Source: Promethearchaeota archaeon (GTDB lineage Archaea; Asgardarchaeota; Lokiarchaeia; Sigyniarchaeales; SOKP01). Taken from it: a stretch of 50,139 nt of DNA. Made by a program: the position numbers and the translations under genes. The stretch spans positions 1 to 50,139 of the forward strand of contig JBHLNS010000023.1 of the NCBI GenBank assembly GCA_048941285.1. Reading direction: 5' to 3'. Positions 15,178 through 30,454 of the stretch are shown here, in pieces (the stretch's first letter is position 1; every line of letters begins with the position of its first letter). The notes under the pieces are model-generated. The model did not search any database, had not been told where the DNA came from, and saw only the letters and a list, made by a program, of their open reading frames with translations.

Positions 15178-16689
15178 ATGAAACCTCCTGAAGATACTAT
15201 TCTAACTATCGATCTCTCATCAAATAAGATCAAAGTAGCTTTAGTAAATGATAAATTAAATTTGGGGCCCTCTCTAAGCCGAGATCTAAAGATTATCAAT
15301 GAGGATGTTGACGGATTTGCTAAAAGATTCGATATGGACGACATGTGGCAGAATTTAAAACATCTTATACATGAAATATTAAAAAATGAAACTGAAAATA
15401 CCAATCTTATCGGAATTTCCTCTTGTGCTCAGAGGATGGCAGTTGTTTTTGTTAATAATAAAGGAGAAATAATTTATGGTGGGCCAAATACTGACGTACG
15501 TGGTATCGATAGCGCATATTTAATAGAAGATGAATTTTCAGAAGAAGAATTATTTCAAATAACAGGGCATAGCCCTTCAATATTGTTTTGTCTTTCTCGT
15601 CTTTTATGGTTCAAAGAGGAAGAAGAAAATTTATATGATAAGATTGATAAAGTTTTTATGTTAGATGATTGGATCGTGTATAAACTTACTGGAGAAGTAT
15701 GCTCTGATTTAACCTCAGCGGGAGAATCTCAACTACTTGACATTAGAAAAGGAAATTGGAGTTTGGATATTATTGAAGCTTTTGATTTTAAACCAGATCT
15801 ATTTCCTGAATTTATTAATTCCGGAGCGATAGCAGGAGAATTAAAAACTGAATTAAAAAAATATTTTGAAATAAAACAGAATTCTATACCTGTGATTAAG
15901 ACGGGTGGAGATACACAAGCAACATTAATAGGAATGGGTGTTATAGAAGACGGTTACATTGGTATAAGCCTGGGGACAACAGCTCCTATTCACTTGGTTA
16001 TAAATGAACCTTTCTTAGACCCAAAATATAATTTTTGGACAACCTTTCATTCTATTAAAGGGAAATGGTTAATTGAAGGGAATTCTGGAAACACGGGAAT
16101 AGTCTATGATTGGCTAAAAAACAATATTTTACCAGATGAAATAAAAAATAAAGATAAAGTCATTGAAGATTATATAAAACAGGTGGCACCTGGTTCCGAT
16201 TCTACATTTGCTTTTCTAGGTCCCGAATTTATGAATATAAAAGACCAAATTTCTCTTAAAAGAGGGGTATTAGTTTTTCCTCCACCTACATTAATAACTG
16301 AAAACCTTCCGAAAATATCTAATTTTGCACGAAGTGTGATTGAAAACATTTGTTTTGGGATTTATGAAAATTATAAAGAGCTCAATAAACTCTCAAATTT
16401 TGACGTTAAATTATACTCTGCTGGTGGAATGGCTAAATCTAATGAGTTTTGCAAAATTCTAGCAAATATTCTTACTCAAGAGATTAAAGTACCTCAATAT
16501 AAGGATTCAGCATTTCTTGGATGTGCAATGAATACACTATTTGCTTTAGGTTTATACGAAAATTATAGAAAGATTGTAGATGAGTTATTAGTATTTAAAA
16601 AATTTTCCGTTCATGATCAAATTTCAAATGAATATAAGAGGGTATTCAAAGAATGGAAGAATTTGAAGAAGCGAGTTAATGATTTATGA
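15178..16689 (+). CDS. FGGY-family carbohydrate kinase, divergent (LsrK/AI-2-kinase-like features)
   Basis: TIDLSS, NTDVRG, RLLWFKE, DDWI.YKLTG, GGDTQA, SLGTT, GGMAKS. Confidence 0.85.
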   Translation: MKPPEDTILTIDLSSNKIKVALVNDKLNLGPSLSRDLKIINEDVDGFAKRFDMDDMWQNLKHLIHEILKNETENTNLIGISSCAQRMAVVFVNNKGEIIYGGPNTDVRGIDSAYLIEDEFSEEELFQITGHSPSILFCLSRLLWFKEEEENLYDKIDKVFMLDDWIVYKLTGEVCSDLTSAGESQLLDIRKGNWSLDIIEAFDFKPDLFPEFINSGAIAGELKTELKKYFEIKQNSIPVIKTGGDTQATLIGMGVIEDGYIGISLGTTAPIHLVINEPFLDPKYNFWTTFHSIKGKWLIEGNSGNTGIVYDWLKNNILPDEIKNKDKVIEDYIKQVAPGSDSTFAFLGPEFMNIKDQISLKRGVLVFPPPTLITENLPKISNFARSVIENICFGIYENYKELNKLSNFDVKLYSAGGMAKSNEFCKILANILTQEIKVPQYKDSAFLGCAMNTLFALGLYENYRKIVDELLVFKKFSVHDQISNEYKRVFKEWKNLKKRVNDL

Positions 16690-18075: not shown

Positions 18076-18154
18076 CTAAGTCTTTTTTATTTATGATCTA
18101 TTTTTATTATAATACTTATTAAAACAATTTTATTAATTAAAATAGGTGAATATA

Positions 18155-19837
18155 ATGAAAGCATTAATAACAGCAACAATCACAAATGAATGTTTGAAAA
18201 AGTTACAAAAATTAATAGAAATAACTTATGAACCTTGGAGAGAAACTGGTATAATTTATTTCGATGTAAACGAACTGGTGGAAAAACTAAACGATTATGA
18301 TATTTTTATCACTGAAGCAGATGATTTAAAGAAAGAAGCTCTATTTGAGAATACTAATTTAAAACTTATTGTCTCATGTAGAGGTGATCCCTTTAATGTT
18401 AATTTAAAAGCAGCAACCAAAAATCAAATTCCTGTTCTTTATACACCACTTAGAAATGTTGATGCTGTGGCAGAATTAACTATAGGCTTTATGTTGGTGC
18501 TAGCTCGAAAATTACATCTTACTGATCGAATAATCCATTCTGATGATTTTGAAATATTAGAATTTGAAGATTATGTAAAATATTTAAATACTTTTCAGGG
18601 CATTGAATTAAAAGGAAAAACAATTGGTATTATAGGTTTTGGACAAATTGGAAAAAGAGTTGCCGATAGACTTAAACCTTTTGGTGTGGATTTTTTAATT
18701 TATGATCCCTATATAGATGAAAATATAATTAAAGATTATGGCAAAAAAGTTGAGATTGATGATTTAATAAAAGAATCTGATATTATTACAATACACGCCA
18801 TAGCTACTGATGAAAATGAAAATCTGATTAATGAAGAAAGAATTTCAAATATGAAAAAAACAGCATTTTTAATTAATACGTCAAAAGGGAGTATAATTGA
18901 CTACGAAGCCTTGCATAAAGCATTAGAACAGGAAAAAATTGGAGGGGCAGCACTTGATGTTTTTCCTCTCGAGCCTATTGATGAGGATAATGAATTTATT
19001 GAATTAAAAAATGCTATAATCACCCCACATATCGGTGGAAATACGGAGGAGGTAATCGAAAGGCAATCAAAGATTATACTAAATGACATTGAAATATGGT
19101 TAAAGGGTGAAAAACCTCAATTTGTTATGAATCCTGAAATTTTTCAAAAAGACAGAATGAAAAACTTGCGAAAAGATGAGAAGCTTTTTACATTGAAAAA
19201 ACAAATTGTAGATTTATGTCAACAGTTACTAAGGGAAAAACATGTTATCGGTTCTGCAGGTAATGTAAGCTTAAGAGTAAAAACTGATAATGGAGAATTT
19301 GTATTAATAACACCTAGTAATGTACGTTATAGTGAAATGGCCCCTGAAGATATTCTGACAATTGATATGGAAGGCAAGGTCATAGAAGGAAATAGGAATC
19401 CTTCTGTTGAGAAAAAAATGCATTTGAGTATTTACCACGAAAGAGAAGATGTAAATGCTATCATCCATGCCCATAGTATATATTCTACTGTCCTTAGCGC
19501 TTTAAATATGTCAATTCCAGCTATATTTGAGGAATTTGTTCCATATATAGGTGGTGAAGTATTATGCGCCAAATATGGAGAAGCGGGTACTGAAGAGTTA
19601 GCAGAAGGAGTGTTGAAGGCTTTAGAAGAAAGGAATGCAGTCTTGCTCGCAAATCACGGGAATTTATGCTGTGGCAGTCATTTGGATGGAGCTTATACCA
19701 TTTTAGAATATCTAGAAAGAGGTGCAAAGATTTATTATTTAGCGAAACTTATAAAAGAGCCAAATTTATTACCTGAAGATACAATTGACTATGAAATGGA
19801 AATATTTGAAATTTTTAAAGAATCTAAAAAAATTTAA
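18155..19837 (+). CDS. Fusion: D-2-hydroxyacid dehydrogenase (SerA-like) + class II aldolase (FucA-like)
   Basis: N-half: GIIGFGQIG, YDPY, DVFPLEP, TPHIGG. C-half: GNVS, TPS, PSVE..MH, HAHS, LANHG. ATG 18155 follows AGGTGA (the track's GTG 18146 is part of the SD). Confidence 0.9.
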   Translation: MKALITATITNECLKKLQKLIEITYEPWRETGIIYFDVNELVEKLNDYDIFITEADDLKKEALFENTNLKLIVSCRGDPFNVNLKAATKNQIPVLYTPLRNVDAVAELTIGFMLVLARKLHLTDRIIHSDDFEILEFEDYVKYLNTFQGIELKGKTIGIIGFGQIGKRVADRLKPFGVDFLIYDPYIDENIIKDYGKKVEIDDLIKESDIITIHAIATDENENLINEERISNMKKTAFLINTSKGSIIDYEALHKALEQEKIGGAALDVFPLEPIDEDNEFIELKNAIITPHIGGNTEEVIERQSKIILNDIEIWLKGEKPQFVMNPEIFQKDRMKNLRKDEKLFTLKKQIVDLCQQLLREKHVIGSAGNVSLRVKTDNGEFVLITPSNVRYSEMAPEDILTIDMEGKVIEGNRNPSVEKKMHLSIYHEREDVNAIIHAHSIYSTVLSALNMSIPAIFEEFVPYIGGEVLCAKYGEAGTEELAEGVLKALEERNAVLLANHGNLCCGSHLDGAYTILEYLERGAKIYYLAKLIKEPNLLPEDTIDYEMEIFEIFKESKKI

Positions 19838-19864: not shown

Positions 19865-20590
19865 CTATTTTATATTATTTATTAATGATTTTAATGCCAT
19901 TTCTGTTGATTCCTCTGCTTGTTGCTTGGTAACCATTCCAATTGTTACAGCACATATATTATGATTTCCAATATATTTAAAAGCTAATTCTGGGTTAATA
20001 GCACCAGCAGCTAGAGTTTTCATAGCTATAAAATAAAAATTTTTCGTTTTATCGACAATTTCTTCCAACTTATTTAAATCTCCCATTAAAAATCCTTGAA
20101 GATTAAAGGGAATCAAAAATACTTTTACATTTAGAGAATTTTCAATGCAATACTTAATTGTTGGTATAGGTTCATGGGTTGCGATTCCAGGAATTATTCC
20201 ATAATCAGAAATTTCATCTAAGAGTTTTAATAAATCTGCTTCTTTTTGATCAGAAATAAGACCATGAACGAATATTATTTTTGCTTCTTTTTCAATTAAA
20301 ATTTCAATTTTTGGATCCACACCGGGATAAGTAGATCCAGTTATCACAAAATCGCTATGGGTTTGACTCATTATCTGGGCGGCTTCCATGATTTTTCCAG
20401 TTGGTATTACCTCTATCCCGCGAGCACCCTTTGCATAACTTGCTTCTAATATTTCTAAAATTGCAACTGGATCATTTAAAAATTTCGAACGCCATTCTAA
20501 TGCTTTATATCCAAATTGACCTGCTCCAATAAAAGGAGAAGTTCCTACGGAAACTAGTGGAATATTGATATCATCGATTTTACAAAAAAT
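19865..20590 (-). CDS. Aldo/keto-reductase-like TIM-barrel protein (track ORF 19865..20389 appears N-truncated; proposed start ATT 20590)
   Basis: In-frame upstream extension IFCKIDDINIPLVSVGTSPFIGAGQFG...; GIATHEP, P.N..G, IAMKTLAAG, TIGM motifs. Confidence 0.75.
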   Translation of the reverse strand: MFCKIDDINIPLVSVGTSPFIGAGQFGYKALEWRSKFLNDPVAILEILEASYAKGARGIEVIPTGKIMEAAQIMSQTHSDFVITGSTYPGVDPKIEILIEKEAKIIFVHGLISDQKEADLLKLLDEISDYGIIPGIATHEPIPTIKYCIENSLNVKVFLIPFNLQGFLMGDLNKLEEIVDKTKNFYFIAMKTLAAGAINPELAFKYIGNHNICAVTIGMVTKQQAEESTEMALKSLINNIK

Positions 20591-20761
20591 ATTAACCCCT
20601 TCCTTAAATAAAAATTAATTTAATCAGAATTTGATAAATAAATAATATATAGAGAATTATAAAATTTTAAGTCAAAATTAATATAAATACATAAAGAATT
20701 TTATTCATAAAAAATAATAGAAATTCAATTTAGCTTCTTATTTGATACTGAGGAGATAAGA

Positions 20762-22846
20762 ATAACACATATTAATGGTGTGATTTGTAATACACTAACC
20801 TTTCATAATCAAGATTTTAAAATCATCGAAAGCTTAAATTCACTCCTTATTCGCCATATTCTTACAAATGATGCCAAATCTCTTCTTCTTTTTGGGAGAG
20901 TGGATGAAATTGATCAATTTTCTCTATCAGAAAAAATTAGATTAATTGAATTAACAGTGAAAATTACAAAGAAGGAAATTCCTATTATGGTTGGACTTTA
21001 TGGTGATCTGGCAGATGATATAATCGAAAAAATCGAAAGTTTGGGTAAGAAATTCGAAAATCTTTATTTTTTGATATCTCCTCCATTAACCGAAAAAAAA
21101 CCTTTAGCTGATATTAAATCTTATTTTGAAAATATTTTTAGTTCTATCGCCTCTAAAAACCAGATATATTTGATAAATAATCCTCCTTTATTTGCAGGAA
21201 ATGAGATTGAACCAACCTTATTAAACAATTTAATCGAATTTCCAAATTTGAAAGGACTCATTGATTCATTTTATAATATTAGAAATTGTAAAGCTTATAT
21301 TCAAAATTTGAATAAAAATTTTTCTGTAATATGTGGCATGGAAGAAAATTCACAAACATTTTTGCAACTTATTCCATTAAACATGAGAAAATACTGTGGA
21401 GTTCTTTCAAGTCTTAGCAATTTAGTTAACATGTGCTCAAAATTATATAATTATGCACTAGAAGACAAACTTTTAGAACTCCTACAAATACAAGAAGAAA
21501 TAAATGATATAAGAAATAAATTGTTTGAAATTAGGACTAATGAAGTAAATGAAAAAATAGCTTTGAAATATGCTTTTCTACATTTATATAGGGATTTAAT
21601 ACCAAGAACTAATCTAGACATAAATAGTCTAGATGAAGAATTCAAAACCCAAATTGCTCCAATAAGTAAAGGAAGAATTGAGGCTACGGTGAAGTATTTA
21701 CTTAATAATAAACAGATTTATCAATTATATTTTCTTGGTGGAAACGATCTTTACCAATTTGATGAAATCATTAATAGGTTTTCAAATATTGATATTTTAG
21801 TTAAGCAGGGCAAAGTAAGGAAGATTAAAGGTCCATATCTTACTGATCTTAACACTCTCTATAGAGTGCATTTTGAAAATAGTCAATTGGTTTTCAGATT
21901 TCATACAAGTCAAATTTTCCAAATTGAAGATTTTATCAAAGAAAAACTATTATATCCCTTTTTGGATAAAAGTTTAGGCTCTAATGTTATTAATTTAAGA
22001 CAGAAAGTTAAACAAATTATTAGTACTAAGACAGGGTCATATTTTTTCAATAAAGAGAACCCTCCAATCATTCCTGTATGTAATTTAATTTATTATGATG
22101 AAACAAAGGATATTATCCCAATTAACTACGCTGTAAATGAATATATAAGAGGGAAACCTTTATTTCAACTTATTGAGAGATATATCAGTGAAGGCAAAAA
22201 TTTACAGACGAAAAAATTTTTGGATTTATTTAATAACTTAGGAGAACAATTAGGAAAATTACATACCATAAAATTTGATTCCTTTCATAAGAATATTAGT
22301 AATATTGGTAAAATTCCTAAAATTTCTTACCTAGATTATATTAATAGTGAATTTGAACAAGACATAAATGAAGCAAAAAGGAATAAAATAGATTTTTATG
22401 ATGAAATTAAGGCTTTCTATCAAGAAAATTCAACATTAATCGAGGAAGAAAATGACTTTGTTCTACTACATAACGATTTCAAAAGTCAAAATGTTATTGT
22501 AAAAGAGGAATTAGGTGCTATAAGAATAAATGGTATCGTAGATTTTGATAATTGGAGTGTTGGTTGTCGAGCTCAGGACTTCATAAAAATTGATTATTGG
22601 ATTCTGAAACCTTTAAACAACCCTTCATTCTATAGCTCTTTTTATGATGCATATTCAAAATTTTACACTATAAATAGAGATTTTAAGAAGAAAATTGATT
22701 TGTATAAATTACTATGGCTTTTAAATGAATATAACATTGAAGCAGAATTGATAAAAAAGTCAGATCAAATGGATATTGTGAAAAAGCCATCAATGTCTTT
22801 AGAAAATTATTTATTCGAAATAAAAACAATAATTCGGTCGGTTTAA
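20762..22846 (+). CDS. Fusion: degenerate DapA/NanA-like TIM barrel + APH/choline-kinase-like phosphotransferase (track start GTG 20780; proposed start ATA 20762)
   Basis: N-half follows the DapA pattern (FSLSEKIRLIE, IPIMVG, PP, NNP..AG, FPNLKGLIDS, SSLSNL). C-half has LGKLH, LLHNDF..QN and GIVDFD. Confidence 0.82.
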   Translation: MTHINGVICNTLTFHNQDFKIIESLNSLLIRHILTNDAKSLLLFGRVDEIDQFSLSEKIRLIELTVKITKKEIPIMVGLYGDLADDIIEKIESLGKKFENLYFLISPPLTEKKPLADIKSYFENIFSSIASKNQIYLINNPPLFAGNEIEPTLLNNLIEFPNLKGLIDSFYNIRNCKAYIQNLNKNFSVICGMEENSQTFLQLIPLNMRKYCGVLSSLSNLVNMCSKLYNYALEDKLLELLQIQEEINDIRNKLFEIRTNEVNEKIALKYAFLHLYRDLIPRTNLDINSLDEEFKTQIAPISKGRIEATVKYLLNNKQIYQLYFLGGNDLYQFDEIINRFSNIDILVKQGKVRKIKGPYLTDLNTLYRVHFENSQLVFRFHTSQIFQIEDFIKEKLLYPFLDKSLGSNVINLRQKVKQIISTKTGSYFFNKENPPIIPVCNLIYYDETKDIIPINYAVNEYIRGKPLFQLIERYISEGKNLQTKKFLDLFNNLGEQLGKLHTIKFDSFHKNISNIGKIPKISYLDYINSEFEQDINEAKRNKIDFYDEIKAFYQENSTLIEEENDFVLLHNDFKSQNVIVKEELGAIRINGIVDFDNWSVGCRAQDFIKIDYWILKPLNNPSFYSSFYDAYSKFYTINRDFKKKIDLYKLLWLLNEYNIEAELIKKSDQMDIVKKPSMSLENYLFEIKTIIRSV

Positions 22847-23004: not shown

Positions 23005-23922
23005 ATGTCTCGCTATAACGAAGAATTAAAATTTGCTATAAATATTGTTAGAGAAGCATCTATAATAACTGAATGGTTTAGACAAAAAGGATTTGAATCC
23101 TTCTCAAAATCAGATCAATCACCCGTGACTATAGCAGATTTTGCCTCCCAAATATATATAATTTCTCAATTAAAGGATTGCTTTCCTGAGGATGAAATTA
23201 TAGCGGAAGAGGAGAATGTTGATTTTATAAATAGTAAGTCAGAAGATTTGATAAATCAATGTTTTAGTGAATTAAATTTAAAAAAAATGAAATATGTCAA
23301 AGAAAATGTAAAATTTCGAGGCCAATCATCTGAACGTCAATGGACAGTAGATCCAATTGATGGAACTATTGGATATCAAAAGGGATTGCCCTATGCAGTA
23401 GGTGTTGGCTTTATGATAAAATCTAATCCCAAAGTTTGTGCTATAGCAGTACCAAACTATAATAAGGAGCCATTAGCTATTTTTAGAGCAGAGGAAAACC
23501 AAGGGTCTCAAGTTTCATATAATAATAAAAATTTCTATCCAATTAAGGTAAGTCATATTAAAAGTATAGATAACATTCGTTTATGTCATTCATTACATTA
23601 TGATCAACCTTGGGTTCTTAATTTTGCAAAAAAAATTGGTATTAATAACTTCATTCAAATTGATAGCATGACAAAATTTTGTATGATTGCTGATGGAACT
23701 GCTGATCTGTATTTGAAACCTTTAGAAATAGCCCATTCATTTACATGGGATTTTATGCCGGGAGATTTAATTGTAAAGGAAGCAGGTGGAGCAGTTACAG
23801 ATTTAAATGGTGAAACCTTAAAATTTAAAAAAGAAAAATGTTTATGGACCGCACCTGGAATTATTTCTTCAAATGGGATTCTTCATAAAAGAATTTTAGA
23901 GCTGTATCATGAAAATCTTTGA
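23005..23922 (+). CDS. Inositol monophosphatase / 3'(2'),5'-bisphosphate nucleotidase family (HAL2/CysQ-like)
   Basis: KSDQSPVTIADFASQ, AEE, DPIDGT, WD..PG.LIV.EAGG.VTD. Confidence 0.92.
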   Translation: MSRYNEELKFAINIVREASIITEWFRQKGFESFSKSDQSPVTIADFASQIYIISQLKDCFPEDEIIAEEENVDFINSKSEDLINQCFSELNLKKMKYVKENVKFRGQSSERQWTVDPIDGTIGYQKGLPYAVGVGFMIKSNPKVCAIAVPNYNKEPLAIFRAEENQGSQVSYNNKNFYPIKVSHIKSIDNIRLCHSLHYDQPWVLNFAKKIGINNFIQIDSMTKFCMIADGTADLYLKPLEIAHSFTWDFMPGDLIVKEAGGAVTDLNGETLKFKKEKCLWTAPGIISSNGILHKRILELYHENL

Positions 23923-30055: not shown

Positions 30056-30454
30056 TTATAAACTTGAAAGTTTTTCTAAATCTGCTTGCGAATTATCTAC
30101 TGCCCAATTAAGAAGTTGGTCAAAATATCTTTCCACATCCTCACTTTCAGGAGCTTTTGATAAAATTGCTAAAAGGAATTGATTTTTATTGTCAGGCATA
30201 ATTATATTTCTCATCATTATGAAATCTTCTTTATATTTAATCTTCATGCTCTGGATTTCGGAAAGTCCCAACTCCTCTGCAGCTTTATATGCTGAATCAC
30301 TTAATAATGATCCCATAGCAGCCACTACACGTTCATCAATTTTTTCTTCTTTTTGAGAAGCCAACACGAGACCTGTTGAAGTTGCGAAAAGTGAAGCTCG
30401 AAAATTTCCATTTTCATTCAGTTCTTTGAGTACCAATTCAAGTCTACTTACCAA
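30056..30454 (-). CDS. Roadblock/LC7 (LAMTOR/MglB-like) domain protein
   Basis: ASLFATSTGLVLAS...VAAMGSLL...AAEELGL roadblock pattern; 132 aa. Confidence 0.85.
   Translation of the reverse strand: MVSRLELVLKELNENGNFRASLFATSTGLVLASQKEEKIDERVVAAMGSLLSDSAYKAAEELGLSEIQSMKIKYKEDFIMMRNIIMPDNKNQFLLAILSKAPESEDVERYFDQLLNWAVDNSQADLEKLSSL

Follow-up and report, generated by a model that had tools for sequence, protein, structure and literature searches.

The window analysed here is a stretch of 50,139 nucleotides on contig JBHLNS010000023.1 of a Promethearchaeota archaeon. On its forward strand it contains a gene in which a dihydrodipicolinate synthase/N-acetylneuraminate lyase (DHDPS/NAL) type barrel without its catalytic residues is fused to a kinase domain. 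The gene is one open frame, 20780..22846 (+), which starts with GTG and encodes 688 amino acids followed by a stop codon. The protein can be divided into three parts:

20780..21574, + strand: DHDPS/NAL-type (beta/alpha)8 barrel, catalytically degenerate, residues 1-265 (PF00701, AlphaFold2 model, Foldseek)
21575..21814, + strand: C-terminal helices of the aldolase and linker into the N-lobe of the kinase, residues 266-345 (AlphaFold2 model, conservation)
21815..22843, + strand: kinase domain of the APH/choline-kinase fold, residues 346-688 (PF01636, AlphaFold2, structural matches)

Both halves are recognised at the sequence level. Pfam DHDPS (PF00701) matches residues 6-264 with E 1e-16 (60.9 bits, cut-off 22.1) and Pfam APH (PF01636) matches residues 428-604 with E 3.6e-11 (43.7 bits, cut-off 23.2), while Fructosamin_kin (PF03881) gives a weaker match (23.2, cut-off 22.4). 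The full-length AlphaFold2 model, built on a 126-row alignment, has a mean predicted local distance difference test score (pLDDT) of 90.7 and a predicted template modelling score (pTM) of 0.81. It consists of eight strand/helix repeats, C-terminal helices and then a bilobal kinase, with the barrel strands at residues 2-4, 34-37, 69-73, 96-99, 128-133, 157-162, 181-185 and 206-210. The top Foldseek matches of the model are DHDPS and N-acetylneuraminate lyase structures, with a target-normalised template modelling (TM) score of about 0.8. An earlier note on this DNA had proposed a DapA/NanA-like N-terminal layout joined to an APH-type C-terminal domain and had named structure prediction as a check of the TIM-barrel fold; profiles and models agree with it on both domains. 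The pTM of 0.81 for a two-domain chain suggests that the domains are held in a fixed arrangement.

The catalytic motifs of the aldolase were read from an alignment to a solved DapA structure (6t3t_B, E 6.6e-8) and from MAFFT alignments with relatives, including those that keep the Schiff-base lysine. Three motifs are changed:

20894..20908, + strand: GRVDE, residues 39-43, in place of the pyruvate-carboxylate motif G-(S/T)-T-G-E (alignments)
21173..21184, + strand: INNP, residues 132-135, with Ile132 at the catalytic Tyr of Y-N-N-P (alignment with lysine-keeping relatives)
21254..21268, + strand: GLIDS, residues 159-163, with Ile161 at the Schiff-base Lys of G-I-K-D-S (alignments)

Only Gly39 and Glu43 are left of the pyruvate-carboxylate motif, and Phe164, the residue next after GLIDS, replaces a Ser/Thr of the working relatives. 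At the tyrosine, the pairwise HMMER alignment is shifted by one residue; the lysine-keeping relatives have Y-N-N-P in the family alignment, which shows that the I-N-N-P register is the right one. The three changes are those listed in the earlier note, and both the DapA alignment and the lysine-keeping relatives confirm them. Judging from these residues, the barrel of this protein cannot form the lysine-pyruvate Schiff base and is not an aldolase. The NCBIfam dapA equivalog TIGR00674 gives 69.6 bits against a cut-off of 206.15, and the genome has an ordinary DapA-type gene elsewhere, on a separate contig, with 292 bits.

The fusion is common among close relatives. A word-index search gave 163 matches, and among the matches listed both Pfam domains are present in 114 of 120, much more than chance would give. 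The identity of the listed matches to the query is 48-77% (its own record aside), and all the named ones are Asgard-labelled and called "dihydrodipicolinate synthase family protein". This public name is misleading when the metabolism of Asgard archaea is reconstructed, because the protein ought to be counted neither as DapA nor as an aldolase of any kind. With one genome per species, the fusion is found at 63 loci, all with Promethearchaeota-type titles, and it is also present, uninterrupted, in further metagenome contigs. A survey of 400 sampled genomes of the phylum, at a match threshold of E <= 1e-25, found a match in 93 genomes. The genus is nearly complete (51 of the 53 other genomes), the family to which it belongs has 86 of 134 genomes with a match, and two other families of the same order have 3 of 14 and 3 of 4; no match was found at this threshold in any sampled family outside these three. 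Within the sampled genomes, the fusion occurs only in one order of the Loki-type Asgard archaea.

Such a fusion could also be an assembly artefact or a decaying pseudogene. No point in favour of this explanation was found, and the uninterrupted frames at 63 species-level loci and in metagenome contigs, the near-complete presence within the genus and a mean column identity of 68% over 23 proteins all speak against it; given this recurrence we reject it, and its probability is practically nil. Contigs from four DNA sequencing runs match the gene only in short pieces of 31-298 letters, none of which spans it; one piece of 298 letters agrees with 21598-21895 at every position, but its run is from the same study as the possible source and was not counted as evidence. 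The fusion is a genuine feature that is conserved and under selection, and the presence in other genomes that the earlier note had asked about is well established. That note also knew of no described protein with this architecture, and in the part of the literature reached by a full-text search the combination of a DHDPS/NAL barrel with an APH-type kinase was not found described.

The origin of the fusion can be followed in its relatives. An exhaustive representative search identified stand-alone aldolase-like proteins (about 325 residues) and stand-alone kinases (about 385-420 residues) that are related to the two halves, as well as distant fusions. All ten aligned stand-alone aldolase-like proteins keep both the Lys and the Tyr, and all but P0137 (G-S-M-G-E) keep the Thr of G-x-T-G-E. 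At nine loci (L066, L067, L069, L072, L090 and L091-L094) the two are found as a split pair, an aldolase gene followed by a kinase gene on the same strand, with a spacing that ranges from overlap (up to 46 nt by the longest-frame rule) to 39 nt apart. The motifs were read in five of the split-pair aldolases (L066 and L091-L094), and Lys, Tyr and G-S-T-G-E are kept in all of them.

Of 110 full-length fusions, 6 have K at the Schiff-base position, 69 have N, 30 have I and 5 have another residue. Two of the lysine-keeping fusions, L049 and L065, are located at the same syntenic place as the lysine-less fusions and are therefore orthologues of them. Trees were calculated with FastTree for the 110 fusions and with IQ-TREE for 32 proteins. 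In both, the lysine-keeping forms are basal, and most lysine-less forms make up a well-supported clade that excludes L063 and L052. The lysine state needs at least two changes on either tree. When a single lysine-less group is enforced the cost is 36.4 log-likelihood units and the tree is rejected by the approximately unbiased test (p-AU 0.0046), a value to be read with the caveats that the tested group was chosen after the tree was seen and that L063 is a long branch.

The relatives trace the protein back to a tightly coupled gene pair, in which a Schiff-base (class I) aldolase of the DHDPS/NAL type was directly followed by a small-molecule kinase of the APH/choline-kinase fold. The two genes then fused, and later the active site of the aldolase was abandoned, independently at least two times. 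Coupled genes, fusions with both sites intact and fusions with a dead aldolase are all found in living organisms, and in some lineages the kinase site is apparently going as well. Together they form a natural series from an enzyme to a non-catalytic module, the stages of which can be compared directly. Pseudoenzyme modules are already known; what is unusual here is how complete the set of living intermediates is.

What has been retained in the dead barrel is informative about its role. Among the 104 lysine-less proteins the mean pairwise identity is 58.4% for the barrel and 59.7% for the kinase, i.e., the two halves are equally conserved, and the linker (residues 266-345) is the most conserved stretch, with 19 of its 80 positions (24%) conserved at 95% or more. 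To compare constraint, positions conserved at 85% or more in the lysine-keeping forms, a much more diverse set, were rechecked in the lysine-less clade. In the barrel 21 of 48 such positions are relaxed or changed, whereas the kinase has 11 out of 56 (Fisher p 0.011, with relatives that are not independent). The relaxed barrel positions include residues 4, 7 and 9 at the end of strand 1, T-G-E-G (41-44), G-x-x-G (72 and 75), Tyr132, Phe138, I-K (160-161), Ser164, P-S-I (210-212) and the G-K-x-Q-R loop (256-260). At Ser164 the change is to Phe in 88% of the lysine-less forms and in none (0%) of the lysine-keeping ones. From this it can be concluded that the pyruvate pocket has probably been lost while the fold was retained, which speaks against a sensor of keto acids.

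One alternative is that the barrel is still an enzyme by other chemistry, with, for instance, a metal or a different lysine in place of the Lys161 Schiff base. In favour of this, purifying selection acts on the domain, and Lys221 is 99% conserved in the lysine-less clade. However, Lys221 is also the commonest residue in the lysine-keeping forms (56%), and according to the secondary structure of the model it would lie in the helix after strand 8 rather than at the end of a strand. Together with the lysine, Tyr132, T-G-E-G and the G-K-x-Q-R loop have moreover been lost or relaxed, and to our knowledge every characterised member of the DHDPS/NAL superfamily uses the strand-6 lysine. The alignment of the clade contains no compensating lysine, that is, none fixed in the lysine-less clade yet absent from the lysine-keeping forms; a lysine from elsewhere at the Schiff-base position, the case that the earlier note had set against its own reading, thus does not seem to have been gained. 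We consider a barrel with a new chemistry very improbable.

The earlier note had instead seen the barrel as a metabolite sensor, in which a keto-acid or sugar ligand bound by the dead barrel would allosterically control the kinase, be it a small-molecule or a protein kinase. Some polar residues of the barrel, Asp162, Glu188, Asn214, Arg203 and Asn133/134, are indeed invariant in the lysine-less clade, and in the loops of the C-terminal face (C-face) 23% of positions are conserved at 95% or more, compared with 14% and 9% elsewhere. In addition, 14 of 29 kinase-domain sequences weakly match a model of SrkA-type Ser/Thr kinases. However, the slightly higher conservation of the C-face loops over the rest of the barrel is not significant (Mann-Whitney p 0.14), the pyruvate-site positions are relaxed, with a Phe for Ser164 next to the former lysine, and neither a clade-specific lysine nor any other new polar constellation is seen. 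The sensor idea is therefore not supported by the pattern of conservation and appears doubtful to us. The same note also mentioned an oligomerisation scaffold, which is possible; a homodimer prediction with two copies of barrel residues 1-318 gave a median score of 0.40 against a mark of 0.42, which bears neither way on oligomerisation.

The kinase half belongs to a large and diverse fold. Modelled alone with AlphaFold2 it reaches a pLDDT of 90.3 and a pTM of 0.89, and the neighbours of this model are all small-molecule kinases (Z 17-21, Foldseek E about 1e-10): APH(2''), APH(4), APH(9), homoserine kinase II, maltokinase, FN3K, choline kinase, MTR kinase and NahK. The best Z to APH structures is 20.7 and no single kinase subfamily stands out, in agreement with the sequence profiles. 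No NCBIfam subfamily model is reached by the kinase domain, and in the ESM Atlas nothing was found beyond the cluster of the protein itself (157 members, Archaea) and generic APH clusters at 0.89. The active-site positions are:

21896..21898, + strand: Arg373 of strand beta3, where the ATP-binding Lys usually stands (106 of 110 fusions have Arg and 4 have Lys)
21941..21943, + strand: Glu388, the glutamate of helix C (97 of 110 fusions have Glu and 13 have Gln)
22469..22492, + strand: HNDFKSQN, residues 564-571, the catalytic-loop (Brenner) motif with the catalytic Asp566 and Asn571 (alignments)
22541..22549, + strand: DFD, residues 588-590, with Asp588 at the position of the Mg-binding Asp (alignment to APH(2'')-Id)

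In the profile alignment to APH(2'')-Id, Asp566 pairs with the catalytic Asp and Asp588 with the Asp of I-D-F-G-D. With the exception of the beta3 Lys, every canonical kinase residue is present in this copy.

Compared to known systems, the kinase has the bilobal fold of the APH, choline-kinase, FN3K and homoserine-kinase-II type (Z 17-21, with 260-325 residues aligned), and its H-N-D-x-x-x-x-N and D-F-x motifs align with those of APH(2'')-Id. However, its identity to 28 structures at Z 16.7 or more is only 9-18%, and it differs from them in the beta3 Arg, in motifs of its own family, such as Y-Y-D-E-T-K and K-E-K-L-L-x-P-F-L-D, and in the fusion to a barrel. The barrel belongs to the same superfamily and fold as DapA but falls below the equivalog cut-off of DapA proper. 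The whole family, including the working members, also differs from DapA in having Pro-Pro at the Tyr106/Tyr107 pair and Phe at Arg138, in E. coli DapA numbering; the domain in the window has Phe and Pro/Leu at the Arg138 and Tyr107 places. As in pseudoenzyme domains that are kept next to a working paralogue or partner, the catalytic residues have been lost while the fold and purifying selection were kept, but we know of no described DHDPS/NAL barrel in such a role.

Leads to the chemistry of the ancestor come from the forms that still have an intact aldolase site. A profile of the working aldolase relatives has YagE, a 2-keto-3-deoxy-galactonate aldolase, as its best match (E 1.3e-29), followed by Bacteroides DHDPS, Acinetobacter-type DHDPS, the KD(P)G aldolase 4uxd (1.1e-25) and C. 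glutamicum NAL. YagE/YjhH and the archaeal KD(P)G aldolases have the same (beta/alpha)8 fold, and the working relatives keep G-S-T-G-E, Y-N-N-P and G-I-K-D-S, whereas the domain in the window has Ile at the Lys, Ile at the Tyr and GRVDE. Gene pairs of a KD(P)G aldolase and a KDG kinase, KdgA-KdgK, are known from the branched Entner-Doudoroff pathway of archaea, where KdgK has the PfkB/ribokinase fold. The ancestral split pair resembles KdgA-KdgK in that a sugar-acid aldolase of the DHDPS family is found beside a kinase; it differs in the APH fold of the kinase, and in the present protein the aldolase half is dead. Our best guess for the ancestor is a kinase that worked upstream or downstream of a sugar-acid aldolase.

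The surroundings of the ancestral forms are varied. At L091 (6772-13392) the split pair is directly preceded by a BNR_2 sialidase-like gene and followed by a GH2 beta-galactosidase, so that a glycan or sialic-acid context for the ancestral enzymes is possible. At L096 and L097 a stand-alone aldolase paralogue is found beside two MFS-type sugar transporters, together with a Zn-dehydrogenase gene at L096 and an inositol-1-phosphate-synthase-like gene at L097. The split pairs L066 (957-5116) and L067 (2043-4760) are located beside ThiC and a ThiD-ThiN fusion, L066 also beside Thi4 and a NUDIX gene. This link to thiamine is limited to these two loci, the other split pairs lacking thiamine neighbours, and was kept as a lead only. 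At L068, L072, L093 and L094 the neighbours are proteasome, JAB or CxxCxxCC genes.

We suggest that the dead barrel is a structural partner of the kinase, that the kinase is the likely working part, acting on a small molecule, and that the protein originated from a fused gene pair, a combination to which we give about an even chance. The barrel would be kept to hold, stabilise or assemble the kinase, its former pyruvate pocket being no longer constrained. The kinase, which in this copy has the full set of catalytic-loop and metal-binding residues, would phosphorylate a small molecule, perhaps one derived from a sugar or sugar acid. A structural role is favoured because the barrel is as conserved as the kinase while the old active site is relaxed.

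Several observations weigh against this explanation. The structural role is an argument by elimination. The conserved neighbourhood (SRP54, RNA methyltransferase, amidohydrolase, AMMECR1, IMPase-family gene, DinB and NadC) says little about function, and the sugar-acid lead comes from ancestral forms and single loci, while two other split pairs adjoin thiamine genes. In the kinase itself, strand beta3 has Arg and not the usual Lys, and 26 of the 110 full-length fusions lack one or both of two residues, the catalytic Asp and the first DFD Asp. The catalytic Asp566 is lost in 8 fusions (HNN in 6, HNG in 1 and HCN in 1) and the first Asp of DFD in 19 (G in 14 and N in 5), with both losses in one fusion. 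At least 12 changes on the tree are needed to explain these losses, and they also occur within the 11-row clade of the window's own protein (P0006, P0007, P0009 and P0017). The variants are found in uninterrupted open reading frames of species-level genomes, e.g., at L005, L006, L009, L022, L027, L028, L037 and L060 in the case of the first DFD Asp, and at L010, L022, L027, L041 and L045 in the case of HNN. Kinase catalysis may not be the conserved job of the family, and our confidence in an active kinase is only moderate because so many orthologues lack a canonical Asp through so many separate changes. The intact kinase described in the earlier note holds for this copy, with its HNDFKSQN and DFD, but not for the family as a whole.

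The conserved role of the protein could then be a non-catalytic one, as a scaffold or as a nucleotide- or ligand-binding switch, with the intact kinase motifs seen here being ancestral residues not yet lost. The orthologues without an Asp are still full-length and conserved, conservation is higher at Asn565, Asn571 and Asp590 than at Asp566 and Asp588, and the aldolase half has already lost its catalysis. However, 84 of the 110 fusions, this protein included, keep both Asp residues, Asn571 is kept in 109 of 110, and the share of relaxed kinase positions given above is small. Some kinases without a DFG-type Asp, such as CASK, also stay active. We regard a non-catalytic role as unlikely. A more specific version is that the kinase site became dispensable after the death of the aldolase, which left a pseudo-aldolase/pseudokinase scaffold or nucleotide-bound switch; this is a tentative idea that we hold with low confidence. 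If true, the protein would be an archaeal counterpart of the pseudokinase signalling modules of the eukaryotic style, and all stages would be alive today, from the active split pair and the active fusion to forms that are dead in one half and forms that are dead in both.

For the gene neighbourhood, the window contains, in order, genes for NAD kinase, aIF5A, SRP54, an RNA methyltransferase, an amidohydrolase and AMMECR1, an FGGY/HTH/SCP2/2-HADH-aldolase-II cassette, a 174-residue open reading frame and the fusion gene, followed by an IMPase-family gene, DinB, an aldolase II, a xylose-isomerase-like TIM barrel, a NikR-like gene and NadC. These neighbours are present again at most of the 63 loci, e.g., DinB at 53, AMMECR1 at 49 and the IMPase-family gene at 44. 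The neighbourhood was considered as a guide to function, but it is housekeeping synteny shared across the class in which the cassette is only variably present, and no pathway was drawn from it.

The cassette consists of the FGGY kinase at 15178-16689, an HTH regulator, SCP2 and, at 18146-19837 (+), a 563-residue protein in which a D-2-hydroxyacid dehydrogenase and a class II aldolase/adducin domain are fused; the cassette is found between AMMECR1 and the fusion gene in many, although not all, of the 63 loci. The 174-residue frame at 19865-20389 (-) has no Pfam match at E <= 0.01, and at 33 of the 63 loci it is directly upstream of the fusion gene and divergent from it. The IMPase-family gene at 23005-23922 (+), which presumably resembles HAL2/CysQ-type nucleotidases, is directly downstream on the same strand at 44 of 63 loci, and in the metagenome loci L073, L074 and L077 it starts 33 nt after the stop codon of the fusion. 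The small open reading frames between the fusion and the IMPase-family gene at distant loci gave nothing useful.

The start of the gene can be read in two ways. Upstream of the GTG at 20780 there is no in-frame ATG, GTG or TTG. The earlier note had placed the start at 20762, which is in frame, 18 nt before the GTG, and aligns with the Met of orthologues that begin with M-x-x-I-N-G-V-I-C; the codon there is ATA, which is not a listed start codon, and the canonical start remains the GTG. Six nucleotides ahead of the ATA the following element is read from the sequence only:

20750..20755, + strand: Shine-Dalgarno-like GAGGAG

The true start is thus either 20762 or 20780, and a non-canonical ATA start is possible; the choice affects none of the other results. 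A scan for promoters and terminators gave sites no more numerous than in shuffled sequences.

Two further genes are worth recording. At 30056-30454 (-) the window encodes a small Roadblock/LC7-domain protein (PF03259, E 3.3e-5) that is conserved in 33 loci; this family is often noted in Asgard genomes. Elsewhere in the same genome (L002:1-1131, on contig C42, where the gene is cut by the contig start) a DHDPS-family gene with an intact G-I-K-D-S-S carries a formaldehyde-activating enzyme (Fae) domain at its C-terminal end (PF08714, E 9.8e-55), which is another unusual fusion of a DHDPS barrel.

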